From an uncultured Muribaculaceae bacterium (GTDB lineage Bacteria; Bacillota_I; Bacilli_A; RF39; UBA660): DNA of 58,391 nucleotides. The stretch lies in contig CAZEMQ010000001.1 of assembly GCA_964513435.1 (NCBI GenBank), positions 71,883 through 130,273 on the forward strand. The letters are read 5' to 3'. Positions 4,749-57,221 of this stretch are shown in pieces (within the stretch, counting starts at the first letter, position 1; every line of letters begins with the position of its first letter). Below the pieces are notes generated by a model. The model saw only the letters and a program-made list of their open reading frames with translations, made no database searches and was not told the DNA's origin. The position numbers and the translations under genes are program-made.

Positions 4749-5112
4749 CGTTTATACCCTAAATTTTCATTTAGGAACTGACTATATCTTCACATAATTA
4801 ATCACCAATTATGTGTCTCGCGCTTCCACTTAATAAGCGTACTCCTTTACAGGATAGTCGATGAACTTTTATCTTTATGCAATCATTTAAAATCGCACCT
4901 AAGATACTTAGCTGCGGATTGTCCAATTTCATACACTTTTTACTCTATCAACAGTAGTTAATTGTTGTCATTAGATATATTTCTATTCTAATTTAGTATG
5001 TATAAACTTAAGGAGTTTCCCGCAATTCACGAGATTTAACGACTACAATATTATTTTATTAAGCTATTATACTTAAAAGGTATAAATGTCACTCTATAAC
5101 GGTATAGAGTCA
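4749..5112 (-). mobile_element. group I intron, ORF-less (364 nt)
   Basis: P1: exon GACUAU (5118-5113) pairs perfectly with IGS GUAGUC (5046-5041), ending in U.G. Core: gtgaattgcgggaaactcc, ggacaatccgcagc, gttcatcgactatcc, gatatagtcag (4778-4788), P9 hairpin cctaaatgaaaatttagg, then omega-G at 4749. Without splicing, exon 1 runs into TGA three nt past the splice site. Confidence 0.8.
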
Positions 5113-8100
5113 ATAGTCTGAACCTTGTAACAGTATCTGATATGTAGATACATATGCGTTATTTATATCAGGATTGTCAAATGCAACGACTCTCATTGGC
5201 ATGTATGATTGCATAGACTGTGCTGGAATTCTAGCTGCAACTACATCTAACGATCTCAGAAAAGATGTATGTTTAGCTCTTCCCATCCTAATTATATAAT
5301 TATCTTCTGGTAATGTTTTATAATTATCTAAATTTATAGAATGAAATTCGTTGTTAGCATTTATAATATCTAAAGATTTTCTTCCATTTTTTGTTAAATA
5401 CCTTCCAAATCTCTTTGCTGTAGTATTACTTGATTTCTTTAAACTTGAAACTATCTATGTTAATAATGATGGACGTGTAACTAAATTATCAGATATTTTT
5501 ATGGTATCATATGATAAATTATTTATATAAAAATCAATATCGTCAGATACAATAACTTCATTACCTAAATTATCTGTGTAGATAGTAGTATCTGAAGTTA
5601 TTTCATACATATCATCCCCATTAGAATCCTATCTAAATATTCTTCCATCTTCATCTGTTCTATATATTATATTGTTTAACTTCTATAGATTAGAATTGGG
5701 TAAAAATCTAGTGTTAAGAAGATATATATGATTTCCATTAGATCTTTTAAATTCTATAGAATACTGATTTGGCTAAACTTTAGTTGATTGATTTAATAAA
5801 TACTATTTTATAAAGAAATCTTTATCATTCATAATAGTATGTAAATCGTCAAACTCCGTTAATCCAAATACAGTAGCAAATATTTTTGGAAGAATTACTT
5901 CATAAGCCTATCTAGATATAGAATTTCTATTTACGGAATAATATGTTCCATCAATTTTAACTTTATTAGTTCGATCTAATAATTCAATAACTTGTCCAAG
6001 TATGTTTATATAATTATTACCGTTTACAGTGATTCTTTCACCATTAAGAACAATTATATTTCCATCACTTCTACCTAATAGAATATTTACAACTGAAGCA
6101 AATTTATCAAACCACAATGGTGTATTCTCATAAGTATCAATAAAATCTCTTAGCTGCTATACTTTATCCTAGTACATTGGAGATAAATTGAACAAATCAC
6201 TCTACAACACACGTCTTATAAGTCGTTCTAATTGATTTATTACTTCTGGAACATTGTCAAGAGTTATTTCTGAAACAGTATCTGAATAATTTGAATACAG
6301 TTCATATAATCGCTGTATATTCTCTGGGATATTTTTCCAATTATCTCTTAGTTCAGTTAGTTCAAACAAATCCTACGCAGAATCTAAGTCCCATAATTGA
6401 AAATTACTACCATCTGTAGTAGAAAATCTAACATTATATCCAGCTAGATCTCTTCCTTCTTTTACATTTTCCACTACACTTATTACTATTCCATCCTATA
6501 TTTGTTTTTTCAAATTTTTATATTCCTGTGCAGTTCTTATAAGTACAGAATTAGTAACTGCTTCAAAAGTTAAATTGGTACTACCATCTTCTAATTCTTC
6601 ATTAACCGGAACCAAACTTGTAACATAATACGTCCTTCCTAGTTCTAGATTAGATATATTATTATCTAATCTTTTCAAAGCCATATCGTTTATACGGGTT
6701 TCATAATCAAAATCACTTTCATTTTCGAGCTAAGAGTATGTATTACGCATTGCTTCGTGCATCAATACAAAATGTTCCCATTCTTCATAAGATTTAAAAT
6801 CTCGATCTAAGGGCTTACTATTTCTCCAATTTTTCCATGTTTTTTCGTTAAACATCTAACGAAGTAATTCAGTATCAATTAATACTCTTCCGTCATAAGG
6901 ATTTTGTACTGCTACAGGTTGTTCATCAACAGTAGAAACTAACGAATTATAAGGAACACGTTCTATCTGCATTCCCATAAATTCCTACATATTAGGATTG
7001 TATAAAAATCCAGAATCATATATAGGAACTTGTTGTCTTTGAAGTTCTTCTAATTCTATTTCAGGATTAGTGAATGATTCTAATTTTCTATCCCCGTATA
7101 ATTTATATATATTATGTGATGGAGTAAGAACTGCAAGTAATCCAGAAACTTTCTATCTTATACCAGTTTTAGTTAAATAAGAAGTTATAGTAGATAAAAC
7201 TTTTGCATGAATAGTATTATCCGACAACGGCATCAATACTTTAGAATATTTTATTTCCTAACCTTCTCTAGCTTTTTTAATTAAGTCTCTAGCTATAATT
7301 TCTGCAAAATTGTTACTATTTGAAGTTTTATTTCCGAAAGCCTTTATAATAGACTTTACCATAACTTCCTATAGTTTATTAATAGACTATTCTGAACCAT
7401 CTGTAAATAATTCTTTTACAGCTTCAAAATGGTCTTTAGTATTTACTTCTGTTGCTTGTTTTAAAACATTGTATAAATCCATTGCAACGTCAACACTAAA
7501 TCCCCTAGATGCACAAGCAGATATTACCTAAGTCATTAGTGATACATCAGATTCATCAGCATGATGTTCTTTATCTAATTGAATTCCAGATTGATACATT
7601 GATATTTTTTGTATATCATAATCAACATTATCAAAGTATCTTTTAGCTGAATTCATATTAGCACCTCCTTGTTTGATAGCTCCAGCTGTAACCACATAAT
7701 GAACATCTGTGTGTTTTAATGGCTACCACAAATCATCCTAAGTTTCTACATTCTCATTAATTACATCACCTATACTATTCATTGCGATAACTACATTTTC
7801 TATAGAGGTATTTGAAAATTGTAATTTACCATTGACCATTTCCATAGAGTTCTATCCTCCGAATAGATTCCAAAGAGCGTAGTTAGTATTTATTGAGTGT
7901 TGTTCTGAAAATTCATTACCAATTGTATTTCCACTTATAGAAACTTCTTGTATTGCTACATTATATTCATTATTTCCTAAAGATGTTATATTATTTAATT
8001 TATAATATTTATCACCTCTTTTAAAATAAATATCATTGTAGACTATTTTATCGCCTTTGTAGTTAGTCGTTATATCTAATATGCTAGGAGATCCGTCTTG

Positions 8101-43127: not shown

Positions 43128-44147
43128 TTAACCTTGTTGAGGTTGGGTTTGGGTTTGTGTCTATTGCTGAGCTGGATTGGCAATAGACTGTGTAACTACA
43201 GTATTAGTTTGCAATCTTGGATCAGCAGTGTTCTCCATCACCAACATTGTCAGCTCATTGATAATCTCCTAACATACATAATCTGGAAATTCCATAATCT
43301 ATGATGTATCTTCTGTAAGATCTACTTGCTCTTGAGTTAATCTAATTATTTGTGGAGTTTTAATATAATCTATCATTACTGCCTATAACTCAAAGACGGA
43401 TGAATCTCGTCCATATCTAATTTCGCACCTAACTGATGAAGAATTACCATATCTAACTCCAGCTTCTTTTTCCACTATAGATTTATTTGTAAATCCTGTA
43501 AGATCAATAGTTCTAGGTAAATTAGAATTAGGCCCAGTAGTTAAAGAACTTCCAGATCCAGGATCTACTTCATAGTCAGATTTAGTATCTGTACCTACTG
43601 TATTTCTATTAAGAACAGTTGTTGTTTCTATAGGATTAGTAGGTAAATCTACAGATGTATTTAAATTATGTATATAATAATAAGGTCTTTCCGGAAGAGG
43701 TCTATTATAAAAATCATTTAATACAATAGACCACGAATCAGCAGTAAGTCTTCTTGCAGCAAACTGTACATAATCTCCAGCGTTATAGCATTTAAATCTT
43801 TTGTTTAATTTATACACACATATACAGTTTAAAATATGTAGATAATCAAGAGGTAAATATACTTCATAAGTTGCTCCAAACAACGAAGCACTTCCAGTTT
43901 TCCAATTAGAAGTATCAACTCCACTTATGGTAGAAGTAATTTGCTATGGAATTAAGACAGTTGTAGATTTTAATACTCTTATGTCATCGGTAGTTTGCTA
44001 ATTAACATCATATATATTATATCGTTTGTTAATATATTGATTGATAGCTTTATTAATGTAGTAGTTAAAGTCCTATAGCAACATACTAGGTGCGTTTACT
44101 TTGCTTAGTTCTATTAACATACTTTCAAACACCTAACGGCTTGTCAT
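43128..44147 (-). CDS. head-associated protein (339 aa), possibly connector/adaptor-like
   Basis: ATG 44147 to TAA 43130-43128 = 1020 nt. Extends track ORF 43383..43883 at both ends through TAG codons. Q/T-rich C-terminal tail (..AQQ-TAG-TQTQTQPQQG). The function is a guess from position. Confidence 0.65.
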
Positions 44148-44190
44148 GTTGTGTTATATTTAAAAGACTATTTTGTAATATATTTTGGTT

Positions 44191-45141: not shown

Positions 45142-45267
45142 TCACGCTTCGCGTAAAATTACGCTACGATGTGGTGTAAAGCAAGCTATACCACAATATG
45201 ACATCATTACTAATCTGGAACCTGCTACATTGCTAGCTACTTCTCCTGAAGTCTTGCCATCGTATCC
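45142..45267 (-). CDS. putative major capsid protein, exon 12 (last)
   Basis: Follows the intron 3' end ..gataacacattG|GGATACGAT. 126 nt encoding GYDGKTSGEVASNVAGSRLVMMSYCGIACFTPHRSVILREA, then TGA and a terminator. More GC-rich than the flanks. The other two frames either read through the terminator hairpin or stop early. Confidence 0.65.
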   Translation of the reverse strand, partial: GYDGKTSGEVASNVAGSRLVMMSYCGIACFTPHRSVILREA

Positions 45268-45351
45268 CAATGTGTTATCGTGTAGCTTTTTATCTACACT
45301 TCTATAACTTACTTATTCGTTATAGTTCAGCATATATTTTTATCCTATATA

Positions 45352-46056
45352 TTATATTGTATAGTTAATTTTTTGATTTTGTTTAAGCTGTTCTATTTCT
45401 TTTTGCATTATTTTTATCAACTTATCTTTTTCTTCGTCCCTACGTTTTAATTCTTCAATATCTTCACTGTTTTGTTCAATTAACCATAATGCAGCTTGTC
45501 CACATTTTTGTAAATTAAATAACTTTAATTCTTCTGGACATCCTGTTTCTAAATTGCGTTTAGATTCTTTAAAGATTTGAAGAATTTCTTTCTTAGTTAA
45601 ATTTTTATTCAATCTATAAATAGTATCTTCAGAAATGTTTAACTTATCAGCAAGTTCTTTGTTACTTAATGATAATTTTCCGTAAGGTTGTATATCTTTA
45701 AACATATATTGATAACTTGCAGCTATATATGCTTTTTCAGAAAAAGATAAATTTGGATTATCAATGAATTCTAAATAAAATTTATCAAATTTAATTACCT
45801 TTTTAAAGAAATAGTAATTAGATCTACCTTTCTTTTTTACCGTAATGTACTCACATCTTATTAAATTATCTATTGCTTTTCTAATTGTATTGATGGCAGC
45901 ACCACTACGTTTTGATAATGTAGCTAATGATGGATAACATTCATGTTGCTCATTATCATAGCATTTTAAATATAAATATACAAGTACATCTGCCGGTTTT
46001 AATTGCGCTTCTTCTGTCATTTTTGATGGTAAAATAAAAAATTGTTCCTCTTTCAT
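45352..46056 (-). CDS. winged-helix/HTH DNA-binding protein (replication-initiator or regulator-like), 234 aa, intron-encoded, TAG-free
   Basis: ATG 46056 (the track ORF starts 12 nt upstream at a TTG). The N terminus matches the usual HTH_36-type pattern (FFILPSKM..LKPADVLVYLYLKCYDNEQHECYPSLATLSKRSGAAINTIRKAIDNLIRCEYITV). A second HTH (LSNKELADKLNISEDTIYRLNKNL) and a C-terminal coiled coil follow. I see no nuclease motif. Confidence 0.8.
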   Translation of the reverse strand: MKEEQFFILPSKMTEEAQLKPADVLVYLYLKCYDNEQHECYPSLATLSKRSGAAINTIRKAIDNLIRCEYITVKKKGRSNYYFFKKVIKFDKFYLEFIDNPNLSFSEKAYIAASYQYMFKDIQPYGKLSLSNKELADKLNISEDTIYRLNKNLTKKEILQIFKESKRNLETGCPEELKLFNLQKCGQAALWLIEQNSEDIEELKRRDEEKDKLIKIMQKEIEQLKQNQKINYTI

Positions 46057-46132
46057 AAATCGTATCAATTAATATATTATGCACAAATATATCAATCATA
46101 ATTCAATTTTTGAAATTAAAAAAATGTTAAAA

Positions 46133-46215
46133 CGCAAATTTGATATGATTCAAGGGCAAATTTAATACGACCAACCGCAAATTTAATATGGTTCGACCGC
46201 AAATTTAATATATAT
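46133..46215 (-). repeat. four iteron-like direct repeats (period 21-22 bp) upstream of the HTH gene
   Basis: Minus strand: TATTAAATTTGCGGtcgaacca / TATTAAATTTGCGGttggtcg / TATTAAATTTGCCCttgaatca / TATCAAATTTGCGTtttaaca. The GCAAATTT cores start on the plus strand at 46134, 46156, 46177 and 46199. An almost pure A/T tract with TAAGTATAG repeats lies immediately next to them (46205-46250). Confidence 0.7.
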
Positions 46216-46433
46216 ATCTATATTTAAACTATACTTAATATCTATACTTAAACGCTTCGCGAATCAAAAAATTTTAAATAAGGATATTGGACACTCGTGG
46301 AGATATTATATTTATTCAATCTCTATGCGTTACACTACTTAAATACCTTTCGCAATTATTTAAGTTAGCACGGTATTTTCATTTCAGAATCCACCGTTTT
46401 TTGCCCAATTCATTAATAACATTACTGTTATTA

Positions 46434-46786
46434 AGGGCAGAATGTTCTACCTACGCCTGAAAGTTTATTAGTAGTAAAGTCTTGACCCATAAGGGCAACT
46501 TTAGCGATAGCTGGAGTTCCAGATGTTTTATCAGCGGTAAGGTCGATACATACACCATAACCTTTATCAGGATATTCACGAGTCAATGCTCGATCAACTA
46601 CGAATGAAACCTGATTTCCGGCATAAACATACGAATCAAAGGTATTTCCTACCTTAATATAACCACCTTCACCACGATTAGCAGATTTTGAGTACATGTA
46701 AGTACCATCTGTTCTATAATTAGCAAGATATTCACCAAGAACTGTATTTATATCTTGCCATAATTTGCGGTTGACTACAAAAATCC
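46434..46786 (-). CDS. putative major capsid protein, exon 11
   Basis: Follows ..agaataacataattG|GG ATT TTT GTA. 353 nt (2 nt + 117 codons) ending TGC CCT| at 46434. The 12 N-terminal residues and the stop codon of track ORF 46431..46820 are intron sequence. Confidence 0.65.
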
Positions 46787-47946
46787 CAATTATGTTATTC
46801 TGAAACTTTAATAGTTTCAATTCTTATACTTTCGTATAAGTTCAGACTATATCATTATCTTATAATGGTTTAATGTTAGAAGTGTTACCATAAAAATATC
46901 TCCATCTATATCCTCCACATCTTTTTTGTGTTCCTTTAATTGCAGCTATGATATTTGCACTAGATTTAATTCCATTTGCATCAGCTGCTTCTTTAATTGA
47001 AGAATAAGATTCTAAAAAGATTCCTTTGTCATTATATTTAGCAACAGGAGATAAATGATTATTGTTTTTAGGAACAAATTTATTTTTATATGACCAAAAA
47101 TAACCGTATGCTTGATTAGATTTATTATTACATACATTCCAAATAGATGTTTTTGCTGAAATGCTATTTTCAAATTGTTTAGATGCTTCTACTATTGATT
47201 TCCAACATTTGATTAAATTACCTTGTAAATCGAACTAATACACCGATTTCTCTTTTTTCTCAACTGGAGATATATCACTCATATCGTCATTAAAATACTT
47301 CCATTGATAATTTCCGCAGTATTTAGAATTTCCAGATAAGTTTTGTTTTATTGAATTTAAATTTAATGCCTATGATGCTTCTTTAATTGAATCCCACACT
47401 CTTATAAACTTACCTTCTAAAGTGTACTGCGCTATTTTTCTAGAATGCTCATATTGAGATATAATTCCTCCAACTGAAAGATTATAAGTATCTGTTCTTT
47501 TAACAAAATCAATATTTACTATTTCAGCTTCTTTCGCATAAGCTAATTTTTTTCCTTCTTCTGTATCTGGAAATATATATAAAGTTTCTCTTTTAAAATT
47601 TTCATAACCATATTTCTATACAGCTTTCGGAAATCCTTTTATTTTCTTTTTTCTATCTTTTTTTGTAACACCACATCCAATATATCCATCAAATATATCT
47701 GGGTTAGTCCTATGCACCCCTACATAGATTTTACCATTAATTAAATTAGTAGTTTTATAAACTATATATTTCATAAGATATTAAACGTTTAGTCGTTGAA
47801 CATTCTTCCCTTTCGGAAGCCTTTGCTGCTGATTGTCTAATTCTCTAATTTTTAAACATTTATGTTTAGAATTACTTCTTACATTGTAGTTTAGAGACTC
47901 TAAAGATTTCCCAGCAATTTGAATAATTTATTTTTACAGCTTTTTC
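46787..47946 (-). mobile_element. group I intron I carrying a GIY-YIG ORF
   Basis: Core: aaattgctgggaaatc, agacaatcagcagc, gttcaacgactaa. The ORF follows, then gatatagtctgaac (46845-46857), P9 hairpins and ataacataattG. The 5' splice site is placed by codon phase at GCAGCTT| (47947); ATAGCTT| (47956) is also possible. The P1 candidate AAGCUGU gives U-A rather than U.G. Confidence 0.6.
46860..47774 (-). CDS. GIY-YIG homing endonuclease (304 aa) with three in-frame TAG
   Basis: ATG 47774 to TAA 46862-46860 = 915 nt. MKYIVYKTTNLINGKIYVGVH..FDGYIGCG..YNLSVGG, then repeated C-terminal W.S..EA....GY.W-type DNA-binding modules. The track misses it because of the TAG codons. Confidence 0.75.
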
Positions 47947-48112
47947 AAGCTGCCCAAGCTATTTTTGTTAACTTGTTGCCGGTATCTGCCTATGCTTTAT
48001 CAGCCATATCATTCATTATCATGTTGAACAATACAAGATTAGGTTTACCAACGTAACAATATTTATTAGCAGCCGCTTCTATTTGGGGAATCGCCCCTTC
48101 GCCTATATAAAT
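47947..48112 (-). CDS. putative major capsid protein, exon 10
   Basis: Follows ..acatagagaaatattG|ATT TAT ATA GGC. Reads IYIGEGAIPQIEAAANKYCYVGKPNLVLFNMIMNDMADKA-TAG-ADTGNKLTKIAWAA plus a final T that completes a TGG codon with exon 11. The 3' boundary is uncertain by 9 nt. An alternative P1 (GCUGCU/GGCAGC) would shorten the exon to 45 nt but breaks the frame with exon 11. Confidence 0.5.
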
Positions 48113-49462
48113 CAATATTTCTCTATGTTACCATAGAAGCTTAGACTATATCTTTAACTTATATATTCAAATATAAAACCTTTTGAAGATTTTCTTTCTT
48201 TTCTACAAACTTTTTGACAACTGGGAAATACTTTTTTGCATTCAGTTACACTATCCCAAATTTTTATCAAATTACGATTTAAATCATATTGAGCCACTTT
48301 TATAGCTTTTAAATTTTGTTTATTATAAGGTTCAATAGACTTAGATTTTATATAACTCCATCTATATCCTCCACAAGTTCTGTTATTTTTTATAGCTCTA
48401 ATAATATTACCATGACTTGTTTTAGGAGTATTGTTTATGGCATCTTTTATAGATTTATATTCTTTATCAAAAGTTCCATTTAACAAATATCTATAAACAG
48501 GAGTAATATTAGTTAATAATTTACCAGATTTTTCTTCAAGTAATTTGGTAATATCTTCATCTGCTCTGAGAAAATAATAACCACAACATGTAGTTCTATT
48601 AAATACAGAATTTGATATAGAATCTCTAGGTATATCTAATTTCAAAGCAGCTTCAGAAGCATTTTCAAAAGTATTTAATAACATTCCATCTTTATTATAT
48701 TGAAATACATATCCCCTAGAACTTAATTTGTATTCTGAAATATTAATTTTACTAATATCTGACCAAAACGAATTATTAAAACTTCTTTTATCTTTAATGC
48801 ACATTGCAATTCTATCTTTATTTATATTGTATGTAGTAGTAATATCTTTAATAGAATTCCATGTTTTTATCAGATTTCCGTTTAGATCAAATTCGTAAAT
48901 TGTTTTTGACATTATTGGAGGAATTTGTCCACCTGCTATCATATTGTAAGTATCAGTTCGTTTTACAAATTCTTCTGTTACTAACCACGCTTCTAAATCT
49001 AAAGCATCTTCAAGATTATCGAATACTTTTAAAGTATATCTATAAAAAGCAGACGTTCCGTACTTTAAAATAGCTTTATGTAAATGTGTTTTTCCTTTAT
49101 TATATGAACTAGGTTTATTAATATAAGCCCCACATCCAATATATCCATCAAATACTTCAGGGTTCTCTGTTTCGTGTACTCCAATATAAATTTTATTGTT
49201 TATTTTGTTTGTAGTTAAATATACTATGTATTTCATAAGTTTTATACTTTACTTTAAGTTATTTCCCATTTCCATCTTATAGATGTACGATTAAAAATCT
49301 AGTCGTTGAACTTTCTCTACAACTACATTATTAATGCTTGTTTTACGTAGAGTTTAGCTGCTGATTGTCCATAAATAGGAGTTCCCAGCAATTAAAGAAA
49401 TTAATTATTAATAGGTTTTCACCTATCTGACCCATTTATTAAACGGCGATTCTTAATTCCCC
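48113..49462 (-). mobile_element. group I intron H carrying a GIY-YIG ORF
   Basis: P1: exon GACCU (49467-49463) pairs with GGGUC. GNRA hairpin ATAGGTgaaaACCTAT. Core: taattgctgggaactcc, ggacaatcagcagc, gttcaacgactag. The ORF follows, then gatatagtctaag (48141-48152). Confidence 0.65.
48154..49236 (-). CDS. GIY-YIG homing endonuclease (360 aa), TAG-free
   Basis: Intact track ORF: MKYIVYLTTNKINNKIYIGVHETENPEVFDGYIGCG...YNMIAGG, plus three C-terminal repeat modules. Occupies the P8 loop of intron H. Confidence 0.9.
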   Translation of the reverse strand: MKYIVYLTTNKINNKIYIGVHETENPEVFDGYIGCGAYINKPSSYNKGKTHLHKAILKYGTSAFYRYTLKVFDNLEDALDLEAWLVTEEFVKRTDTYNMIAGGQIPPIMSKTIYEFDLNGNLIKTWNSIKDITTTYNINKDRIAMCIKDKRSFNNSFWSDISKINISEYKLSSRGYVFQYNKDGMLLNTFENASEAALKLDIPRDSISNSVFNRTTCCGYYFLRADEDITKLLEEKSGKLLTNITPVYRYLLNGTFDKEYKSIKDAINNTPKTSHGNIIRAIKNNRTCGGYRWSYIKSKSIEPYNKQNLKAIKVAQYDLNRNLIKIWDSVTECKKVFPSCQKVCRKERKSSKGFIFEYIS

Positions 49463-49533
49463 AGGTCTTCCAGTATCAGGATCACTTATTGTGCTCTTTC
49501 CATTGACATCCACCGAGCCTTTATTGAGCAGTA
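49463..49533 (-). CDS. putative major capsid protein, exon 9
   Basis: Follows ..gattaatatattG|TA CTG CTC. 71 nt. Its first 2 nt complete the codon started by the last T of exon 8. Reads LLLNKGSVDVNGKSTISDPDTGRP. Confidence 0.55.
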
Positions 49534-49787
49534 CAATATATTAATCTTATGTTACCATAAAATTCAGACTATATCTTCATTTTATATCCTATTACCGTTT
49601 ATAAAATGCCTCCCTTTTCCACTTACCTGTGTACTCTACTTGTTTATTCACTAATATGTTTCTTATTAGTTATACTTTCGATAGTCGTTGAACTTTACAT
49701 GAAAATTTTCATGTATTAGCTGCTGATTGTCCACCTCTGGAGTTTCCAGCAATTAAAGAGGTTTATACAGAGCTACTGTTACTCAGA
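49534..49787 (-). mobile_element. group I intron G, ORF-less (254 nt)
   Basis: P1: exon ACAGGGU pairs with IGS GCUCUGU (7 bp, ending in U.G). Core: ttaattgctggaaactcc, ggacaatcagcagc, gttcaacgactatcg, gatatagtctgaa (49563-49575). Confidence 0.7.
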
Positions 49788-49968
49788 ACCCTGTGTTCAT
49801 AGCGTACATAAACGTATCAAGAAGTTCTTTCTCTTTCTTCAACATTTTATATACACCTTCATGTTTTGTATGATCTTTATCATCAGATATACTCATGAAT
49901 ACATTCTCTTGAATAGCAAACAAGCTAGACCAGCTAGCATCAGCACGGAATGTAGTCATGTAATTACG
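49788..49968 (-). CDS. putative major capsid protein, exon 8
   Basis: Follows the P9 hairpin cttatatgaaaatataag and ..tattttttG|CGT AAT TAC. 181 nt encoding RNYMTTFRADASWSSLFAIQENVFMSISDDKDHTKHEGVYKMLKKEKELLDTFMYAMNTG plus 1 nt. Corresponds to track ORF 49783..49971 without its TTG start and its TGA. Confidence 0.65.
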
Positions 49969-51362
49969 CAAAAAATACTTATATTTTCATATAAGATTAG
50001 ACTATATTTTTAATTTTCCTAATGAAATTTAAATACATAACCTGCTGTAGTATTTGCTAATCCCCTAAGTACTCTATTTATACAAGATACTTTAGCATTA
50101 AACTCCTTTGCAGATTGTTGTACTGAATCACAAGTTTTAATAAAATTTCCAAGTTTATCATACACATCAACTTTCTTTTTACGGTTTTTATTTACAACAG
50201 GTTCTATCTTGTCAAATTTTTCTAATTTAATTTGATAATCCTTGTATAAACCATTTCTTCTATTAATTACATCATGTACAGAGCTATTAGATTTGACATT
50301 CATAAATTTCATCAATTCTTTTATATCTTTAAATTCCTAAAGATATTCTCCTGATAACGTATATAAATAAAATTTTTTATTTTTTAAAGACTACTTTGGT
50401 TTAGGTTTAAACTCGTCATATAATTTAAAAGAATAATAATATGATTTATTAACTAAATTAAATCCTTGAATTGCAGTTATTAAACTAGAAGTAGTCATTT
50501 CTTCATATTTTGCAGCTTCTGTAAGTGAAGCAAACTCCTATAATAATTTTCCATTTTTATTATATTTATATACTTTCTTTTTAGGAGTATGTTTTGAAAA
50601 ATTCTGAACGTCTATTGATTTATCTCTACTCCAATAATATCCAAATAAAGTTTCTCTAAAATGTATAGCATTTTTTACAGCTTGTTCAGAGCAATTGAAA
50701 AACTATATAACGTCAGAATCGTGTTCCCATTCTTTAAGTAAATTTCCTTCTAAATCGAATTGATTAACGGGTAAATCACACCTATACTCTGCTCCTCCTT
50801 CAATCATATTGTAATTTGTATCTAACTGTATAAATTCTCTAGTTACTAATTCCTTTTCTTTTAAGAGAGCTTCTTCTCTTGTATCGTAAATATACAAAAT
50901 ACTTCTAGAAAATTTATCAGTTCCGTATTTTTTAACTGCATACTAAAAAGCCGTTTTTGGTTTCATGTACGATGATGGTTGATTTATGTATACATTACAT
51001 CCTATATAACCATCAAATTTATTTGGATCTATCGTTCCATGAACTCCGATGTAAATTTTATTATTAACTATGTTTGTTGTACAATATACTATATATTTCA
51101 TATAAAATTATCCTCTCTTTCGGTTAATTACCTACCTATATTAATATTTAGTCGTTGAACTTTATACAATCTATCGTAATTTACGATCCTCGTATTGTAC
51201 TTTAGCTGCTGATTGTCACATAATAACAATTTTTCAAACATTCACGTCTATCTTTACAAATTACGTTGTAGTATTGTTATCTTTATGATATTTTAGCAAT
51301 TTAAAGGATTTGTTTAGAAAGCATTTTAAGCTGCTTTCAAAGAGACACCGTAATTTATTAAA
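49969..51362 (-). mobile_element. group I intron F carrying a GIY-YIG ORF
   Basis: P1: exon AGAGACAU (51370-51363) pairs with IGS GUGUCUCU (8 bp, ending in U.G). Core: aaattgct with an extended P5 insertion, gacaatcagcagc, gttcaacgactaa. The ORF follows, then aatatagtctaa (49996-50008). Confidence 0.7.
50010..51101 (-). CDS. GIY-YIG homing endonuclease (363 aa if the last TAG is read through) with 5-6 in-frame TAG
   Basis: ATG 51101. Track ORFs 50703..50897 and 50019..50315 are in frame. 1092 nt to TAA 50012-50010, the same length as paralogue 54203..55294. If the TAG at 50021-50019 terminates instead, the protein is 360 aa. Confidence 0.75.
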
Positions 51363-51404
51363 TGTCTCTCTACCTGAGACTAAAATTTACTATAGCCCTC
51401 TTCC
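51363..51404 (-). CDS. putative major capsid protein, exon 7
   Basis: Follows ..attagagtaaacG|GAA GAG GGC; the same taaacG ending is seen in intron 4749..5112. 42 nt encoding EEGYSKF-TAG-SQVERH. Confidence 0.5.
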
Positions 51405-52734
51405 GTTTACTCTAATATTTCTATCAGGACTGACTATATCATTAACTTTTTAACTTAAATACTTATATGAATAACCTTTTTGTGTTTTATTTGTACCATT
51501 AAGTACTTTCCATACAGAAGTACCGTTCTCTTTTTCTGCTGCTGTCGCAGATTCGTATATTTTTATTAAATTTCCTTGTAAATCATACTTTCCAACGCTT
51601 CTCTTTTCATTTTTCTTTTTACAAGCGTATTTCGGCAATTCTTCTAAACTCCATAAAAATCCGCCTTTACATGTAGACTTTTGTTTTAAAGATTTAGATA
51701 TATTTGAAGTTGGATTATCACGTTCAGCTTCTATTTGAGAATTATATTTTTGAATAAATTTTCCTGTTTCACCATTATATTTACAAATAGATCTTCCTTC
51801 AACATATCTTAGTCTAGCTTTAGAATAATTGTCGTCTTTTACTTCACAAAAATAATATTTGTCTTTATAAAGTATTCCAAATATTCTACAGTTTTTAATA
51901 GTAATTATATTAATTTTTAAAGTTTTACTAGCTTGTGTTTGATTATCAAATTCATACAACAAAGTACCCTCTTTGGAATATACGTATATGGGAATCTGAT
52001 GATTCAAACCTAAATTATAAGTACTAATGTCTAATTTATCAAATTTAAAATTAGTCCATAAATAATTTTTTCCTTTAGTCTTTAAAGCGATAGCATGATT
52101 TATTAATGAATGATGACAATTCATTTCTACAGATGCTTCTTTTATACTACTATATTCTTTAATGAAATTTCCTTCTAAATCATATTGATAACAAGGAACT
52201 ACAATATAAAAATTATCATCAATTCCTCCTAAAATCATGTTATATACATCATCTCTTGCAAGAAATTCTTCATTTACAAGTTCTCTTTCTAAGTTAGATG
52301 CTTCTTCTAAACTATTAAAAACCGCTAATGTTTTTCTTCTGAAGTTTTTAGGTCCATATTTCTTTACAGCAAACTGAAAATGAGTTTTAGGATAGTTGTA
52401 GGTATTCGGTTGAGTAACTAAAACTCCACATCCAATATACCCATCGAATACTTCAGGATTTATAGTTTTATGTACTCCAATGTATATTTTTCCATTAATT
52501 AAATTTGTTGTTTCATAAACTATATACTTCATATTTATTTAAATTTTAAAGTTATTTACCATTTCCATTATAAAATAATGTACGCCTTGCGGCTAGTCGA
52601 TGAACTCCTATAAAGTACTGTCTCATATCAAACTAGTTACTAAATAAAAGCTGCTGATTACCATATATTTCTACTTAGGCTTCCAGCAATTAAGTAAATT
52701 TGCTAAGCAACTCACGCTGCTAAGATCCGAATTG
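51405..52734 (-). mobile_element. group I intron E carrying a GIY-YIG ORF
   Basis: P1: exon CUGAGU (52740-52735) pairs with IGS GCUUAG (one internal G.U, ending in U.G). Core: ttaattgctggaagcc, ggtaatcagcagc, gttcatcgactagcc. The ORF follows, then gatatagtcag (51430-51441). Confidence 0.6.
51450..52532 (-). CDS. GIY-YIG homing endonuclease (360 aa), TAG-free
   Basis: Intact track ORF: MKYIVYETTNLINGKIYIGVHKTINPEVFDGYIGCG...YNMILGG, plus C-terminal repeat modules. Confidence 0.9.
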   Translation of the reverse strand: MKYIVYETTNLINGKIYIGVHKTINPEVFDGYIGCGVLVTQPNTYNYPKTHFQFAVKKYGPKNFRRKTLAVFNSLEEASNLERELVNEEFLARDDVYNMILGGIDDNFYIVVPCYQYDLEGNFIKEYSSIKEASVEMNCHHSLINHAIALKTKGKNYLWTNFKFDKLDISTYNLGLNHQIPIYVYSKEGTLLYEFDNQTQASKTLKINIITIKNCRIFGILYKDKYYFCEVKDDNYSKARLRYVEGRSICKYNGETGKFIQKYNSQIEAERDNPTSNISKSLKQKSTCKGGFLWSLEELPKYACKKKNEKRSVGKYDLQGNLIKIYESATAAEKENGTSVWKVLNGTNKTQKGYSYKYLS

Positions 52735-52782
52735 ACTCAGATAATTCAGGCATAGCGACCGATTGGAACGTACAGGTGTCAC
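52735..52782 (-). CDS. putative major capsid protein, exon 6
   Basis: 48 nt encoding VTPVRSNRSLCLNYLS if the 3' splice site is ..aagtagccaG|GTG. The alternative ..aagtaG|C (52786) together with the alternative start of exon 5 (54156) also keeps the frame. More GC-rich than the flanks. Confidence 0.4.
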
Positions 52783-54118
52783 CTGGCTACTTAAATAATA
52801 TTTATTTAAAGACTATATCATTAACCTATGTTTTAGGTCAATACTCGCTTCAATCTATTATTTTAAATACATATCCTTTATGTGTTTTATACTTTTCTTG
52901 AATACAATGTGCAACACCTCTTCCCCATACTTTAGAACAAGCATTTAATGATGGGTAAGTATCAAGTAAATTCCCATCTAAATCGTATCTCCCAATTTTT
53001 TTTCGTTTGTTTTTAGGAGGTGCATTATATATTTCTAATTTATCTAAACTCCACATAAAACCATTATCATCAACTTTTTTATTTTTAATAAACTTAGTTA
53101 TATTACTATAAGGATTTGCTTTTTCTGCTTCTAACTGTGTATTATATCCTTCTATAAAATTACCATTATAATCATATTTATAAACAGGTCTGTTTTTAAT
53201 ATAGATAGAATTTGCAATATCATAAGAATCAGCTTCAACAAATGAACATATGTACATATCTTTTATTATATGTCCAAATCTAGCAGATGTTCCAACATCT
53301 AGACTTACATTTAATCCCATAAATTGAGCAGCTTTTGTTAAACTGTCACAAGTCTTTATAAACTTTTTAGTATGGGAATCATAAATAGAAACTTGTATTG
53401 GTTTATTTCTTTCTGTATTACTATAACCTTCTAATTGAAGTTTATTTACTTTAAAATTTGTCCAATAACAGTTTTTAATTTTTATATTATATATTATAGC
53501 TTCTCTAATCGAATTAGGATTACAATGTACAGATTTGGCAGCTTCTTTAATACTCTCATATTCTGTAATAAAATTTCCTTCTAAATCATATTGATATGTA
53601 ATGATACTTCTATACTCCTGAAGCTCTCCGCCTATAACCATATTATATACATCATATCTACTTAAAAATTCCTCATTAACTAAATGTTCTTCTTCTTTAT
53701 AAGCGGCTTCTGCTGTATTAAAAACGGCAAGAGTTTCTCTTTTAAAATTTTTAATTCCAAATTCTCTTACTGCCTGTTGCATTTTGGTTTTACCTTTTTG
53801 ATAAGTGTATGGTTTATAAATCCATATCCCATTACCTAAATAACCATCAAATTCATAAGGTTTATCTGTTTTATGTACTCCTATGTAAATATAACCGTTT
53901 ATTAAATTAGTAGTTTTATAAATTATGTATTTACTCATAATAAATTTACTCCTTTCGGATAGTCGTTGAACGTTATTTTAAATTTAATTTAAAAGAATTG
54001 CTTCCGTGTTAAAATTTTAGTTTAAAATCTTCGCTGCTGATTACCTTTAGGGCTTCCCAGCAATTCAAGTATTTGTTTGTATAGTTATTACTAACTATAG
54101 GATGCTAGTTTTTGGTTA
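52783..54118 (-). mobile_element. group I intron D carrying a GIY-YIG ORF
   Basis: P1: exon GGAUGU (54124-54119) pairs with IGS GCAUCC (ending in U.G). GNRA hairpin ATAGTTAgtaaTAACTAT. Core: gaattgctgggaagccc, ggtaatcagcagc, gttcaacgactatcc. The ORF follows, then gatatagtcttt (52810-52821). Confidence 0.6.
52850..53938 (-). CDS. GIY-YIG homing endonuclease (362 aa), TAG-free
   Basis: Intact track ORF: MSKYIIYKTTNLINGYIYIGVHKTDKPYEFDGYLGNG...YNMVIGG, plus C-terminal repeat modules. Confidence 0.9.
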   Translation of the reverse strand: MSKYIIYKTTNLINGYIYIGVHKTDKPYEFDGYLGNGIWIYKPYTYQKGKTKMQQAVREFGIKNFKRETLAVFNTAEAAYKEEEHLVNEEFLSRYDVYNMVIGGELQEYRSIITYQYDLEGNFITEYESIKEAAKSVHCNPNSIREAIIYNIKIKNCYWTNFKVNKLQLEGYSNTERNKPIQVSIYDSHTKKFIKTCDSLTKAAQFMGLNVSLDVGTSARFGHIIKDMYICSFVEADSYDIANSIYIKNRPVYKYDYNGNFIEGYNTQLEAEKANPYSNITKFIKNKKVDDNGFMWSLDKLEIYNAPPKNKRKKIGRYDLDGNLLDTYPSLNACSKVWGRGVAHCIQEKYKTHKGYVFKIID

Positions 54119-54169
54119 ACATCCGTCAACATCAAGAATGGTATCGTAGTTATTATCAATTAAACGAAC
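54119..54169 (-). CDS. putative major capsid protein, exon 5
   Basis: 51 nt encoding VRLIDNNYDTILDVDGC if the 3' splice site is ..gggaaatataG|GTT. The alternative ..gtttaattG|ATA (54156) is frame-compatible only when paired with the alternative start of exon 6. Confidence 0.4.
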
Positions 54170-55443
54170 CTATATTTCCCAATAATCCATAAATAGACTA
54201 TATCACTTATTATATTTAAATATATAATCTCCAAAATATCTATCACCTTGTTGAATATTTTTAATTTTAGATGAAGGAACTTTATATTTTTCTCTAACTT
54301 CTTTAATCGAATTTAAAGTTTCTATAAAGTTTCCATATTTATCGTAAATGTTTATTGTAATTCCTCTACCTATTCGTTTGTTTGGAACTTTTTCAACAGG
54401 TTTTATGGAAATATAAAAGTCTTTATACCAGCCATTATTATTATAAATTATATGGTTCATATAATCCCATGAATACAAATTTATAACATTCATAATTTCT
54501 TTGCCTTTGTACTGTCCTATATAAACATTATCAACGGTATATACATAAAATACCTCTGACATATAATTTCTTCTTGGCTTTGGGATAAACTAGTCTATTA
54601 ATTTATTAGAAACATAATACTACTTCTTAATAAGTTTCTAATATTTAATTGCACGACTTAATTCTCCAGTATCATAATTTATATATCTAGCACATTCTGT
54701 TTGTGATATAAATTCTTTTAATAATTTTCCATCTTTATTGTATAAATATATAGTATTAGTAATATTTTTGTTAGAATATTCACTAATATCAATTGTAGGA
54801 GATGTTGACCAATAAGAATCTAAAAACGCACACTTATTTCTTTTTGGACCATCAAATCTTGATCTAGGATAACCATAAAATTCATAGCAATCTTCCGAAA
54901 TATCCCATTTTTTAATTAAATTTCCATCGTAATCAAATTGATATAAAGGTTTATATCGTTCTTCGTATTCTCCTCCTAATGTCACGTTATAAGTGTAACT
55001 TTGTGTTATAAATTCTTCAGTTACAATTTCACGTTCTTTGTCGTATGCTTCTTTTGCTGTATCGTAAATAAATAAAGTAGTTCTTTCAAAAGCATCAACT
55101 CCATATTTTTTAACAGCATACTAAAAAGGAGATTTTGGATATTTATAAGTACTAGGCTATTGAATCTTTACTCCACATCCAATATATCCATCAAAAATAC
55201 TTGGATTTTCTGTTTTATGTACTCCTATGTAGATTCTATTAATTCCATTAATTTTAGATTTCTTATTTATAGTCAAGTATACAATATATTTCATAATAAT
55301 TCAGTTTTTCAATTATTAAATAATCTACACCTCACGGTTAGTCGTTGAACGCTGTTGTCATCACAACCACGCTGCTGATTACTAATTAGTTTCCAGCAAT
55401 TTAAAGAATTTATTTTAAAACGAGACAATTAATTGGGATTTTC
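54170..55443 (-). mobile_element. group I intron C carrying a GIY-YIG ORF
   Basis: P1: exon AAACGAGAU (ends at 55444) pairs with IGS GUCUCGUUU (9 bp, ending in U.G). Core: aaattgctggaaac, gtaatcagcagc, hairpin gttgtgatgacaac, gttcaacgactaacc. The ORF follows; its TGA overlaps the P7 3' strand (TGAtatagtcta, 54196-54205). Confidence 0.65.
54203..55294 (-). CDS. GIY-YIG homing endonuclease (363 aa) with five in-frame TAG
   Basis: ATG 55294 to TGA 54205-54203 = 1092 nt. Merges track ORFs 54638..54985 and 54203..54562 (same frame) with an N-terminal part hidden by TAG codons at 55159-55157 and 55123-55121. MKYIVYLTINKKSKINGINRIYIGVHKTENPSIFDGYIGCG...YNVTLGG. Confidence 0.75.
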
Positions 55444-55566
55444 ATCTCGTTTCCGAATTGGTCTTGACACACATTGACATTGTTGTTTGGTTTTATCAAT
55501 TCTAAAGATGTCATACTTCTGGAAGTAGTTCTCTTTAAACGCCATTGTTATTTCTGATCCGTTTTC
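55444..55566 (-). CDS. putative major capsid protein, exon 4
   Basis: Follows ..aagataacataattG|GAA AAC GGA. 123 nt = 41 codons encoding ENGSEITMAFKENYFQKYDIFRIDKTKQQCQCVSRPIRKRD. The 3' end is set by the 9-bp P1 of intron C. A splice site 6 nt downstream (..GAAAAU|) is a weaker in-frame alternative. Confidence 0.55.
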
Positions 55567-56490
55567 CAATTATGTTATCTTACGGGCTTTTTATCCCATA
55601 ATTCTTATACTTTACCATTGTATAAGTTCAGCATATATTTTCATCCTTTAAAGGATGTTGAGTACTCGTGGAAATATTATTTCAATTTCTATGCGTTACA
55701 ATAAATAATATTTTGGAAATTTATAATTCATTGATGGAATTAAATTATAATATTTGTCTAAGAATTCCATTATTTTTAAAGTACCTTTTGTTGAAATATA
55801 AGGTCTATAACCATAATTAGGTCTATCTTCATACTTATAATGCTTATACATACGAAATTCTACTTCGAAGATTTGATTAAATTTATTAGTAATTTTTATT
55901 AATTCTTCTAAAGAAAAACTTTCTAAACATAGAGTAATTCTAAATTGAGTTGGAATTCCTTGTTTATTATATTTAATTCTTAAACATCCATCATCTAAAT
56001 ACATTAATAAAAAAGTAAATTCTGTGAATTTATTAATATATTCGTCAGGAACTATTTTTATACGTTTATTATTTTTAGTAATATAAAGATCTTCTCTTAA
56101 TTGAGTTATCCAGTCTGTTCTATTTGTACTTAATCTATATAATAAATACGTTTTATCTTTTGTAGTTTTATTATGTGGTTTAATTGTACATTTACAGTCT
56201 GGCAGCAATTCAAAAAGTTCTTTTTTGAATTGTAGATAATCTAAATTCTTACTAGTATGAGTAATTTCACAGGAAGAACGACCTTTTGGAGTTCTCTGTT
56301 TGTTAATAGATCCGTCTGCTAATATTGTTCCTAATAATGCAGATTTTATTTCAAATTCGTTATTAAATAATTCTTTTAAGTTCATAGACTTTCTATTTTA
56401 TATCAAAAATATTATTTATCTCGGTATTATCCTTTAAATTTTTGGAGGACTTCACCGATTTTACTCAATTCAATACGTTATTACTAACGT
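55567..56490 (-). mobile_element. group I intron B2 (variant P7 subclass) carrying a LAGLIDADG ORF
   Basis: Starts with a GUAA-capped hairpin ACGTTAgtaaTAACGT, then ttgaattgag and TCGGT..ACCGA. The ORF follows; its TAA lies inside the P7 5' strand (ttgTAAcgcatag). Then P8 catcctttaaaggatg, P7 3' strand atatatgctgaac (55626-55638), P9 hairpins and ataacataattG. Confidence 0.6.
55696..56385 (-). CDS. LAGLIDADG homing endonuclease (229 aa), TAG-free
   Basis: Intact track ORF with two LAGLIDADG-type motifs (SALLGTILADGSI and FLLMYLDDGCL). Confidence 0.85.
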   Translation of the reverse strand: MNLKELFNNEFEIKSALLGTILADGSINKQRTPKGRSSCEITHTSKNLDYLQFKKELFELLPDCKCTIKPHNKTTKDKTYLLYRLSTNRTDWITQLREDLYITKNNKRIKIVPDEYINKFTEFTFLLMYLDDGCLRIKYNKQGIPTQFRITLCLESFSLEELIKITNKFNQIFEVEFRMYKHYKYEDRPNYGYRPYISTKGTLKIMEFLDKYYNLIPSMNYKFPKYYLL

Positions 56491-56559
56491 AAGGGGCGAA
56501 TTTTCACCCGTTTCAGCAGGAACTTCTGCGAATTCTACGTGTTTGATGTTATTTGTCTC
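56491..56559 (-). CDS. putative major capsid protein, exon 3 (69-nt micro-exon between two introns)
   Basis: Lies between a complete standard intron core (B1) and a complete variant core (B2). Reads ETNNIKHVEFAEVPAETGENSPL in phase 0 and is more GC-rich than the flanks. The start could instead be 56556. Skipping this exon would also keep the frame, so it needs RNA evidence. Confidence 0.5.
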
Positions 56560-56769
56560 CGAATTTAGACTATATCATTTACTATGATTTAATATTTGTA
56601 ATTAAATATACAATATATTTCATAATAATTCAGTTTTTCAATTATTAAAAAAATAATTTACAGATTTCTCCTAGTCGTTGAACGCTGTTGTCATCACAAC
56701 CACGCTGCTGATTATTTTATAAACTCCCAGCAATTTAAAGAATTTAACGAGATCAAGACATAATTATTC
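56560..56769 (-). mobile_element. group I intron B1, ORF-less derivative with a GIY-YIG remnant (210 nt)
   Basis: P1: exon GAGGUU (56775-56770) pairs with IGS GAUCUC (one internal G.U, ending in U.G). The core from the P3 strand through the hairpin gttgtgatgacaac and gttcaacgacta closely resembles that of intron C. It keeps only ATGAAATATATTGTATATTTAATTACAAAT.. (MKYIVYLITN..) of the endonuclease gene before gatatagtctaa (56566-56577). Confidence 0.6.
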
Positions 56770-56961
56770 AACCTCCCATTCAAACACCATTGAACTACTC
56801 GAAATATCAAATTTACTAGGTGTTTCTCCTTTGTAAAAGACATTTCTCAAACCATCTGTGATGAAATTTAAAGTGTTATCAGTGTACATTCTGGCTACAA
56901 CACCAAAGCGATACGGTTTAACGCCAATATACTTACTCCAATCTTCAACTGTTTTTGTGTC
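56770..56961 (-). CDS. putative major capsid protein, exon 2
   Basis: Follows ..aagataacattttG|GAC ACA AAA. 192 nt = 64 codons encoding DTKTVEDWSKYIGVKPYRFGVVARMYTDNTLNFITDGLRNVFYKGETPSKFDISSSSMVFEWEV. Corresponds to track ORF 56764..56964 without its TTG start and its last 2 codons. Confidence 0.65.
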
Positions 56962-57215
56962 CAAAATGTTATCTTATAGGCTTTTTATCCTATAAATCAT
57001 ACAATTTATCATTTTGTATGGTCAGACTATATTTTACTTATAATAGTTCCTGTTTTCGTGTTAATATTATTGGTAGACTCCTCAATTATTAGTCGTTGAA
57101 CCTTTCTTCTTACCTTTATGTCATTCAGAAGATTTGGCTGCTGATTATCCCATAGTTAGTTGCCATAATGATGGACTTCCAGCAATTTACAGGATTTTAT
57201 ATGGGCAACACGTTC
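56962..57215 (-). mobile_element. group I intron A, ORF-less (254 nt)
   Basis: P1: AUGGGU (57221-57216) pairs with IGS GCCCAU (57206-57201), 6 bp ending in U.G. Core: aaattgcttggaagtcc, gggataatcagcagcc, gttcaacgactaa (57103-57092), atatagtctgacc (57033-57021). Two P9 hairpins (atacaa..ttgtat and atagg..cctat). Confidence 0.75.
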
Positions 57216-57221
57216 ACCCAT
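57216..57221 (-). CDS. putative major capsid protein, exon 1 (ATG GGT only)
   Basis: ATG GGT is the only start that is both in phase with exon 2 and ends at the P1-defined splice site. An in-frame TTG 45 nt upstream (57266-57264) would give a 51-nt exon 1 instead. Confidence 0.45.

Follow-up and report, generated by a model that had tools for sequence, protein, structure and literature searches.

A crAss-type major capsid protein gene apparently divided into twelve exons by eleven group I introns

How a phage could obtain its major capsid protein (MCP) from a coding sequence scattered in small pieces over some 12 kb is the question raised by a locus on contig CAZEMQ010000001.1 (assembly GCA_964513435.1). 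The window analysed, meaning the whole stretch of 58,391 nt, corresponds to positions 71,883-130,273 of this contig. All positions below are those of the window, and exon and intron coordinates are given on the minus strand, which carries the long open reading frames (ORFs) of the window. An earlier sequence-only reading had proposed that this strand holds one MCP gene in 12 exons separated by 11 group I introns. This proposal is borne out by a gapless fit to uninterrupted homologues, by a match of the spliced product to PF23898 (48.2 bits) and by the intron cores. The evidence thus supports the locus at 57257-45142 (12,116 nt in total) as a single crAss-type MCP gene with 12 exons and 11 group I introns. 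Introns make up 88.2% of the locus (10,685 nt), in agreement with the earlier estimate of about 88%. Taken as a whole, the explanation that we consider highly probable is that of an MCP gene of a crAss-like phage, in which TAG would stand for Gln, from whose ~12.1-kb precursor eleven group I ribozymes would be spliced, and in which homing endonucleases would have spread the introns.

The exon map was built on an uninterrupted 473-aa homologue of the capsid product, encoded by the GenBank gut phage scaffold MT835470.1. A tblastn search of the window with this protein yielded eleven colinear pieces. Boundaries were placed where three requirements held together: an upstream exon ending in U, an intron ending in G, and a protein colinear with its homologues. 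Exon 1 (E1, 57257-57216) is probably 42 nt long and runs from ATG to GGT (MLVASFTSRIPTMG), with a 7-bp P1 helix, TATGGGT/GCCCATA, that ends in U.G. The first exon had been given as 6 nt; these would be the last two codons of E1, and the intron position after GGT stands. The peptide specified by the 12 codons upstream, in the same frame, is MLVASFTSRIPT; it is conserved in 27 of 28 homologues. E2 (56961-56770, 192 nt) was located by tblastn with the uninterrupted homologue and has the junction FEWEV/ETNN. E3 (56559-56506) is a 54-nt micro-exon (ETNNIKHVEFAEVPAETG) that aligns without gaps to the homologues, the intron upstream ending in G and the exon itself in T. E4 (55566-55444, 123 nt), E9 (49533-49463, 71 nt) and E12 (45267-45142, 126 nt including the TGA stop) are based on tblastn and on homologue alignment. 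E5 (54187-54119, 69 nt; DYWEIQVRLIDNNYDTILDVDGC) is colinear with the homologues, contains one TAG at a Gln position and provides the P1 pairing GGATGT/GCATCC. E6 (52789-52739, 51 nt), placed by homologue alignment, has such a TAG as its first codon (QPGDTCTFQSVAMPELS), and E7 (51403-51362), the smallest internal exon with 42 nt, has another (EEGYSKFQSQVERH). E8 (49968-49788, 181 nt) ends in phase 1 with the split codon T/TA. E10 (48112-47971, 142 nt) also ends in phase 1 (T/GG) and contains one TAG; its junction DTGNK/W fits the homologues without an 8-aa insertion, and its P1 is CAAGT/GCTTG. Finally, E11 (46786-46449, 338 nt) reads GVG/GYDG as in the homologues, without an extra RTFCP.

When joined, the 12 exons give a frame of 1,431 nt, that is, 476 codons and TGA, and a product of 476 aa (475 aa in the sequence-only reading). 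Every exon is free of frameshifts and of TAA or TGA stops, all 11 junctions are gap-free in an alignment of the refined product with 28 intact homologues, and every intron insertion falls in a highly conserved patch of codons. In the earlier model, seven of 22 splice boundaries were misplaced, so that the sizes 69, 51, 48, 166 and 353 nt become 54, 69, 51, 142 and 338 nt for E3, E5, E6, E10 and E11, respectively. The split codon T/TA at 49788/49533 had been placed correctly. The split codon T/GG exists and its 3' side is indeed at 46786, but its 5' side is at 47971 and not at 47947. Rebuilt from its exon sizes, the earlier model also gives an open frame, of 1,428 nt with three in-frame TAG. 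Its boundaries were rejected: relative to every uninterrupted homologue they would add LNS, EN, E, LTKIAWAA and RTFCP and drop LDVDGCQP, and they would leave two introns not ending in G and one exon not ending in U.

The identity of the product as an MCP is supported by several searches. Among 5.8 billion proteins searched, 436 are relatives of the spliced product. The best of them are uninterrupted, with 85% identity over 100% coverage, and one of these is named 'MAG TPA: major capsid protein' in nr. The score with PF23898 (Crass_capsid) lies well above the cut-off of 27 bits, and the match covers residues 62-281, across exons 2-10. The product also matches phrog_11589 ('major head protein'), and close homologues carry PF23898 in precomputed annotation. 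A Foldseek search was made with an AlphaFold model, of poor quality, of the 85%-identical homologue P0001 and not of the spliced product itself. Its top seven matches in the PDB were phicrAss001 capsid chains (7QOF, 7QOH, 7QOI), with E values of 3e-10 to 2e-8 and a probability of 1.00 and with template modelling (TM) scores of only 0.26-0.30, followed by other HK97-fold capsids. A search of the PDB with a profile of the MCP sequence gave no match. The exons have a nonsynonymous divergence (dN) of 0.127 from the gene of the closest homologue, with saturated synonymous sites, and are therefore under purifying selection. No second MCP-like sequence was found by tblastn with the uninterrupted homologue in the 58-kb window.

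The gene order agrees with that of MT835470.1: an acidic scaffold-like gene, the MCP gene, and three conserved downstream genes. The hairpin terminator that had been reported after the stop codon was recovered as a terminator-like hairpin at 45109-45082 on the minus strand, 33 nt past the stop codon, with an 11-bp stem containing 6 G-C pairs; two such sites were found (one per strand) against 0.1 expected, and the hairpin is followed by a weak T run (AAGTTTTAAT). The base composition of the window is ~25-33% GC, and its GC skew is negative throughout. A megablast search of the locus against GenBank phages returned a single match of 46 nt, which is at chance level, and no record was found of the product of the neighbouring gene.

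The spliced frame contains four in-frame TAG codons (in E5, E6, E7 and E10), where the sequence-only reading had counted two and had not recognised a recoding. All four align with conserved Gln residues in the homologues, which points to TAG being read as Gln. On this alignment, TAG is a predicted sense codon (Gln) in the capsid gene. Reading through TAG also restores full-length ORFs in introns I4, I7 and I10, with 5, 6 and 3 TAG, respectively; these 14 codons, too, lie at Gln positions. The remaining three GIY-YIG-like ORFs, the LAGLIDADG ORF and the helix-turn-helix (HTH) ORF have no TAG, nor does the capsid gene of the closest intron-less homologue (contig L004; such L-numbers are labels for related viral contigs). 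Another gene, at 43383-44190 on the minus strand, downstream of the partner of the capsid gene in its operon, looks broken in the standard code.

The eleven introns belong to two families. Family A consists of I1, I2 and I4-I10, which carry in this order the elements P AATTGCTGG, Q AATCAGCAGC, R GTTCAACGACTA and S GATATAGTC. The core motifs on which the sequence-only reading was based had been counted eleven times; there are nine copies, one in each of these introns, and I3 and I11 differ. Between 47.7 and 57.1 kb, the minus strand has nine copies of the R-type motif with no more than one mismatch. When up to two mismatches are allowed, 15 matches are found in the whole window against 3.3 expected, a number reached in none of 100 shuffles. 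RNAalifold applied to family A recovers P4, P5 and P7. The ORFs of family A sit between R and S, starting just past P3' and ending at or over P7'.

Three members of this family are ORF-less. I1 (57215-56962, 254 nt) has the P, Q, R and S elements and a 3' domain like that of I3, I10 and I11. It scores 55.8 bits with the Rfam model RF00028 (Intron_gpI), whose gathering threshold is 50 bits, and the Rfam alignment, obtained in a small search region, includes P1-P9, with P1 placed on ...UAUGGGU/GAACGUGUUGCCCAUA. I8 (49787-49534, 254 nt) matches the same model over its full length with 80.7 bits, also above the gathering score. I2 (56769-56560, 210 nt; 26.6 bits, E 1.3e-4) still has 13 codons of what was a GIY-YIG-like ORF (MKYIVYLITNIKS, then a stop). 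The six other members of family A each encode a GIY-YIG-like protein. I4 (55443-54188, 1,256 nt), with clear P, Q, R and S elements, has a GIY-YIG-like/NUMOD1 ORF at 55294-54203 (363 aa, 5 TAG) between P3' and P7'. I5 (54118-52790, 1,329 nt) has its ORF at 53938-52850 (362 aa, no TAG), I6 (52738-51404, 1,335 nt), whose R element is GTTCATCGACTA, at 52532-51450 (360 aa), and I7 (51361-49969, 1,393 nt) at 51101-50010 (363 aa, 6 TAG), the last with sub-threshold Rfam matches of 19.4 and 19.6 bits. I9 (49462-48113, 1,350 nt; Rfam 43.4 and 33.6 bits) encodes a GIY-YIG-like/NUMOD1 protein at 49236-48154 (360 aa), and I10 (47970-46787, 1,184 nt; Rfam 35.5 and 24.9 bits) a GIY-YIG-like/NUMOD protein at 47774-46860 (304 aa, 3 TAG).

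Family B consists of I3 (56505-55567, 939 nt) and I11 (46448-45268, 1,181 nt). Both are without the P, Q, R and S strings of family A and are alike each other, the first 14 nt of I11 paralleling those of I3; they share their 3' domain (...GATAACAYWWTTG) with I1 and I10. I3 has a covariation-supported structure, carries a LAGLIDADG ORF at 56385-55696 in its P6 region and has GGGT/GCCC as its P1. In I11, an HTH_36/DnaD-like ORF (46056-45352, 234 aa) and a tandem repeat (46133-46211) both lie in the P8 loop. Covariation was assessed in an alignment of seven members, namely I3, I11 and five relatives from other viral contigs. RNAalifold on these seven found P2, P3, P4, P5, P6, P7.1, P8, P9 and P9.1, and P7 was added as the P3/P7 pseudoknot. 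With the P7 pseudoknot included, 97.3% of the alignment cells are paired, against 30-43% when the partners are slid by 1-3 columns. Forty of 61 pairs have changed on both sides, and none of 500 shuffles reaches the observed values. An example is P3, which is TTGGGC/GTCCAA in I11 and TTGAGT/ACTCAA in I3. Family B thus has the architecture of group I introns. In both families, P7 and P3' are separated by an additional helix, as is typical of phage IA-type introns, a resemblance in architecture rather than an assignment with subtype-specific models.

Each of the 11 introns is preceded by an exon that ends in U, and each has G as its last nucleotide. The P1 helices that terminate in U.G are 7, 6, 4, 10, 6, 4, 11, 7, 5, 5 and 3 bp long from I1 to I11. 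A P1 of at least 5 bp is thus found at 8 of 11 junctions; of all T positions in the locus, 15% have one. Two pairings of the sequence-only reading have to be reassigned: the CAGCTT/AAGCTG hairpin proposed as P1 of I10 reads better as P2, and the GGGCA proposed for I11 is the 5' strand of P3, as indicated by the compensatory change relative to I3. In-frame stops occur 1-20 codons inside each intron; they are expected by chance in such AT-rich DNA and are not evidence. At the gathering threshold, RF00028 has a single match in the whole window, at 49545-49817 on the minus strand (I8). Permissive scans add sub-threshold matches in four more intervals (I2, I7, I9 and I10), and I1 rises above the threshold once the search region is small.

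Group I introns are also present outside the capsid gene. At least two further ones occur in a different gene, at ~5.1-2.3 kb on the minus strand of the window. One, at ~5080-4760, is ORF-less and has the elements P AATTGCGGG and Q AATCCGCAGC, which are compensatory with respect to the capsid introns; its R element is at 4855-4866 and its S element near 4790. The second, at ~3760-2290, contains a LAGLIDADG_2 ORF (3704-2595) whose N-terminal part has HTH repeats, and an S-like element at 2350-2338. An Rfam scan of 1-44 kb in E-value mode returned nothing, despite the clear intron at ~5.0 kb, and thus misses both of these introns. In gut viral contigs, a compact ORF-less group I family of ~250 nt is widespread, with a P7 of GCRTA/TAYGC and a 3' tail GATAACA...G, and is invisible to RF00028. 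Its members include L049 13919-14175, L187 2718-2952 (minus strand), L091 8787-8986, L010 14663-14805 and L124 2900-3154. L116 is a hybrid of both core types.

Eight of the 11 capsid introns encode proteins: six GIY-YIG-like, one LAGLIDADG and one HTH. The ORF of I3 matches LAGLIDADG_2 (PF03161) with 83 bits. The GIY-YIG-like proteins of I4, I5, I6, I7, I9 and I10 are 304-363 aa long, and all six have the N-terminal motif KYIVY...IYIGVH. The profiles PF01541 and PF19835 give only sub-threshold matches (E 9e-4 to 0.1). NUMOD1 scores above its cut-off in three of the four ORFs tested, that of I4 being below it. The ORF of I9 matches PF07453 (52.8 bits), and the one ORF tested against PHROGs matches phrog_314 ('homing endonuclease', E 2e-32), the assignment obtained for I9. 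The six proteins are 33-45% identical in pairwise comparisons, and are therefore not recent duplicates. The homing endonuclease genes most closely related to those of I6 and I9 sit at the same sites in contig L133, that of I6 being 50% identical. Movement within the gene may have occurred as well. I2 (56560-56769) and the 5' half of I4 (55250-55443) share 87% identity, the endonuclease gene of I2 having been deleted down to 13 codons, and the I4 enzyme is closest (48-49%) to enzymes at the I2 site of the relatives L133 and L138, which suggests ectopic movement of an intron between these two sites of one gene.

The 234-aa protein of I11 (45352-46056) is HTH_36/DnaD-like and matches PHROGs annotated 'replication initiation protein'. 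No nuclease domain was found in it with Pfam or PHROGs, and a search against GenBank phages gave only two weak partial matches. Ahead of this ORF, at 46133-46211 in the P8 loop, lie 3.6 tandem copies of a 22-nt unit (TATTAAATTTGCGG...). The repeat and the HTH ORF together could form a module within the ribozyme that resembles iterons plus initiator or an operator plus regulator.

Among the relatives from IMG/VR, most have an intact MCP gene and several have a split one, with an intron load from 0 to ~9. L133 (1188-5079, minus strand) has five introns in its first 277 codons. L209 (474-3060, plus strand), which shares an identical 44-nt stretch with L133, has four more in the C-terminal part, near residues 318, 395, 425 and 467. 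If both contigs represent the same type of gene, this lineage probably carries about nine MCP introns. L003/L138, L124 and L010 are further multi-intron capsid relatives in IMG/VR. In L002 (MT835492.1), the second GenBank relative, the capsid gene at 6956-7864 is in at least two ORF pieces ~40 nt apart. Sites near residues 378/395, 425 and 467, the last of them nine codons before the stop, are used in relatives and empty in the window. Together with the 11 sites of the window, this makes at least 14 distinct insertion sites in a gene of 476 codons. Given split capsid relatives with up to about nine introns, the gene of the window is the top of a continuum, the extreme case of known multi-intron capsid genes and not a lone oddity.

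In the mechanism that we propose, the locus would be transcribed as a precursor of ~12.1 kb, from which each of the eleven group I ribozymes would excise itself in the standard two steps. An external guanosine would attack after the U of the U.G pair of P1, and the exons would then be ligated after the terminal G of the intron. The joined exons of 42, 192, 54, 123, 69, 51, 42, 181, 71, 142, 338 and 126 nt would form a message of 1,431 nt encoding an HK97-type capsid protein of 476 aa, late genes reading TAG as Gln. Peripheral loops of seven introns house homing endonuclease genes, of which six are GIY-YIG-like with NUMOD1 modules and one is LAGLIDADG. Their products presumably cleave capsid alleles that lack the intron in co-infecting relatives, so that the intron is copied in. 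Such homing would explain the insertions in conserved codon patches and the presence of introns at the same sites in relatives.

Several points weigh against this explanation. The gathering score of RF00028 is reached by only two of the 11 introns (I8 and I1), no match is found in I3, I4, I5, I6 and I11, and in L049 an ORF-less relative of family B escapes the model too, even when only 500 nt are searched. The sequence-only reading had named failure of covariance models on most intervals as a result that would speak against it, and two passes in 11 is such a result. It is explained by ORFs of 0.7-1.1 kb that split the model and by the insensitivity of the model, RF00028 being blind to the ORF-less relative of I3 and I11 as well; the misses are thus likely to reflect sensitivity rather than absence of introns. 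In family A, P4 and P7 are invariant in the nine copies, which makes covariation uninformative, and MAFFT misaligns the variable peripheral helices. P1 is weak in I3 and I6 (4 bp each) and in I11 (3 bp), where the boundaries rest mainly on colinearity with homologues and on the U/G rule. ARAGORN finds no tRNA, and hence no suppressor tRNA, in the 58-kb window. The AlphaFold model of P0001 has a pLDDT (predicted local distance difference test score) of 51. We infer from the sequence that all 11 introns splice, that the endonucleases are active and in which direction the introns spread. Finally, the bridges across three exons, E2 (192 nt), E4 (123 nt) and E8 (181 nt), are not covered by independent Logan contigs.

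This last point bears on whether any single genome holds all eleven introns. It is very improbable that the locus is an assembly mosaic, in which co-existing strains each carried a subset of the introns and the assembler chose the branch with the intron at each bubble. Intron presence is indeed polymorphic among relatives (0 to ~9), the introns, as paralogous repeats, are places where assemblies break (the Logan contigs terminate within introns), and an exact search for exon 7 found no copy in IMG/VR or in JGI metagenomes. However, Logan contigs from the runs SRR7039262 and SRR7039258 match the window with 100% identity in three stretches, namely 56636-55630 (I2-E3-I3), 55307-51341 (I4 to the start of I7, thus I4-E5-I5-E6-I6-E7-I7) and 49956-46351 (E8 to the start of I11, thus E8-I8-E9-I9-E10-I10-E11-I11). 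Five internal exons of 42-71 nt are also shorter than a read, which links neighbouring introns within single reads. Even in the worst case, the three remaining bridges of 123-192 nt leave blocks of four introns. Recovery of the same sequence from two runs likewise speaks against a gene in decay, as do 12 intact exons of 12 under strong purifying selection, conserved elements and U/G boundaries in all 11 cores, and the lack of a second MCP-like sequence in the 58-kb window. That mobile elements overran the capsid gene, that some introns no longer splice, and that the phage is defective or uses another copy or a helper is very unlikely, even though I2 has lost its endonuclease gene, I11 is without a recognisable nuclease, P1 is short in I3, I6 and I11, and the genome beyond the window is not visible.

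A further alternative accepts the introns as real and supposes that some need a protein cofactor (the LAGLIDADG protein as a maturase, the HTH protein of I11 or a host factor), with capsid output gated by these proteins. A LAGLIDADG protein is labelled 'intron-encoded endonuclease maturase' in a figure legend (Yutin et al., PMC7886860), the cores are very AT-rich (~27% GC), and the weak P1 helices of I3 and I11 belong to the two introns with ORFs other than GIY-YIG-like. We regard this alternative as improbable: the sequence holds nothing that requires a cofactor, and the ORF-less members of both families (I1, I2 and I8; L049, L187, L091 and L010) must splice without a protein encoded in cis. 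A crAss-like phage MCP gene interrupted by eleven self-splicing introns is the reading that we retain.

The closest published parallel is found in the Delta and Zeta groups of crAss-like phages, which carry group I introns in core genes, with a maximum of 14 introns per genome (Yutin 2021, Nat Commun, PMC7886860). The Zeta group has genomes of 145-192 kb and an 'unprecedented density' of introns, and in one Zeta MCP gene, which shows no alternative coding, five ORF fragments correspond to four interruptions, of which three have intron-type domains (PMC7886860). As in the Zeta phages, the window has a crAss-type capsid gene split by several endonuclease-encoding group I introns and a high intron density. 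The contigs that carry relatives of its MCP reach ~213 kb, the longer ones being mostly 145-197 kb in size. Unlike the Zeta example, the window combines 11 introns in one gene, at least two more elsewhere in 58 kb, and TAG predicted to be read as Gln. Eleven is more than double the only published per-gene count for a phage that was found. A phage gene with more interruptions than this example was not found in the literature searched, which is not proof of priority. The description of the intron count as 'extreme' in the sequence-only reading thus holds with respect to the literature (four interruptions, PMC7886860) and less so with respect to databases, where relatives probably have about nine.

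High intron loads are also known from the Jug jumbo phages of gut Bacteroides and Phocaeicola, which have 18.5 group I introns per genome on average and split essential genes (Sci Adv 2026, PMC12880540). For 37 of 76 predicted introns of these phages, splicing was confirmed by metatranscriptome reads (PMC12880540). In contrast to the window, their genes are in 2-3 fragments, and their introns are mostly short (~206 nt) and ORF-less, with no alternative code (PMC12880540). More than half of viral group I introns are of subtype IA2 (PMC11835236), and the extra helix between P7 and P3' makes the capsid introns resemble viral IA2-type introns in general.

The td, nrdB and sunY genes of phage T4 resemble the MCP gene in that their endonuclease ORFs are looped out of the ribozyme core. 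They have one intron each, and T4 I-TevI and I-TevII are GIY-YIG enzymes. The MCP gene differs in having eleven introns in a coding sequence of 1.4 kb with exons down to 42 nt. A further analogy is offered by mitochondrial cox1 of fungi, which has up to ~18 group I introns in Agaricus bisporus. There too, one conserved gene serves as a reservoir of endonuclease-bearing group I introns with micro-exons between them; the cox1 introns are mostly LAGLIDADG-bearing and IB-type. By contrast with this organellar gene, the locus of the window is a viral, late-expressed capsid gene whose splicing is needed during infection.

What such a load of introns could bring to a phage may be considered in the light of gp210 of PhiPA3, a single intron endonuclease with a demonstrated competitive effect (Science 2024, PMC11620839). 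This benefit was shown for one intron, and any such benefit from the seven nucleases of the window is speculation. As a tentative and rather doubtful proposal, the MCP gene could exceed in intron density all protein-coding genes so far described from viruses or prokaryotes, and its load could be an arsenal of seven site-specific nucleases directed against the intron-less alleles of co-infecting relatives, in an interference competition like that of PhiPA3, rather than mere parasitism. Eleven serial ribozyme reactions and TAG read-through might then gate the timing of capsid production.

Eleven ribozymes in one 12-kb transcript, some of them 42-54 nt apart, represent a natural stress test for self-splicing, as all eleven must fold and react correctly for the phage to make its most abundant structural protein. 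This raises questions about the order of splicing, about whether paralogous cores misfold with one another or exons are skipped, and about how splicing is coupled to translation. Gene callers see such a capsid gene as fragments only, and the Rfam group I model misses nine of its 11 introns at the curated threshold; counts of introns and of capsid genes for gut crAss-like phages are therefore probably systematically too low. With at least 14 insertion sites in one gene, the MCP gene of these phages is a good system in which to study homing-site choice and intron turnover.

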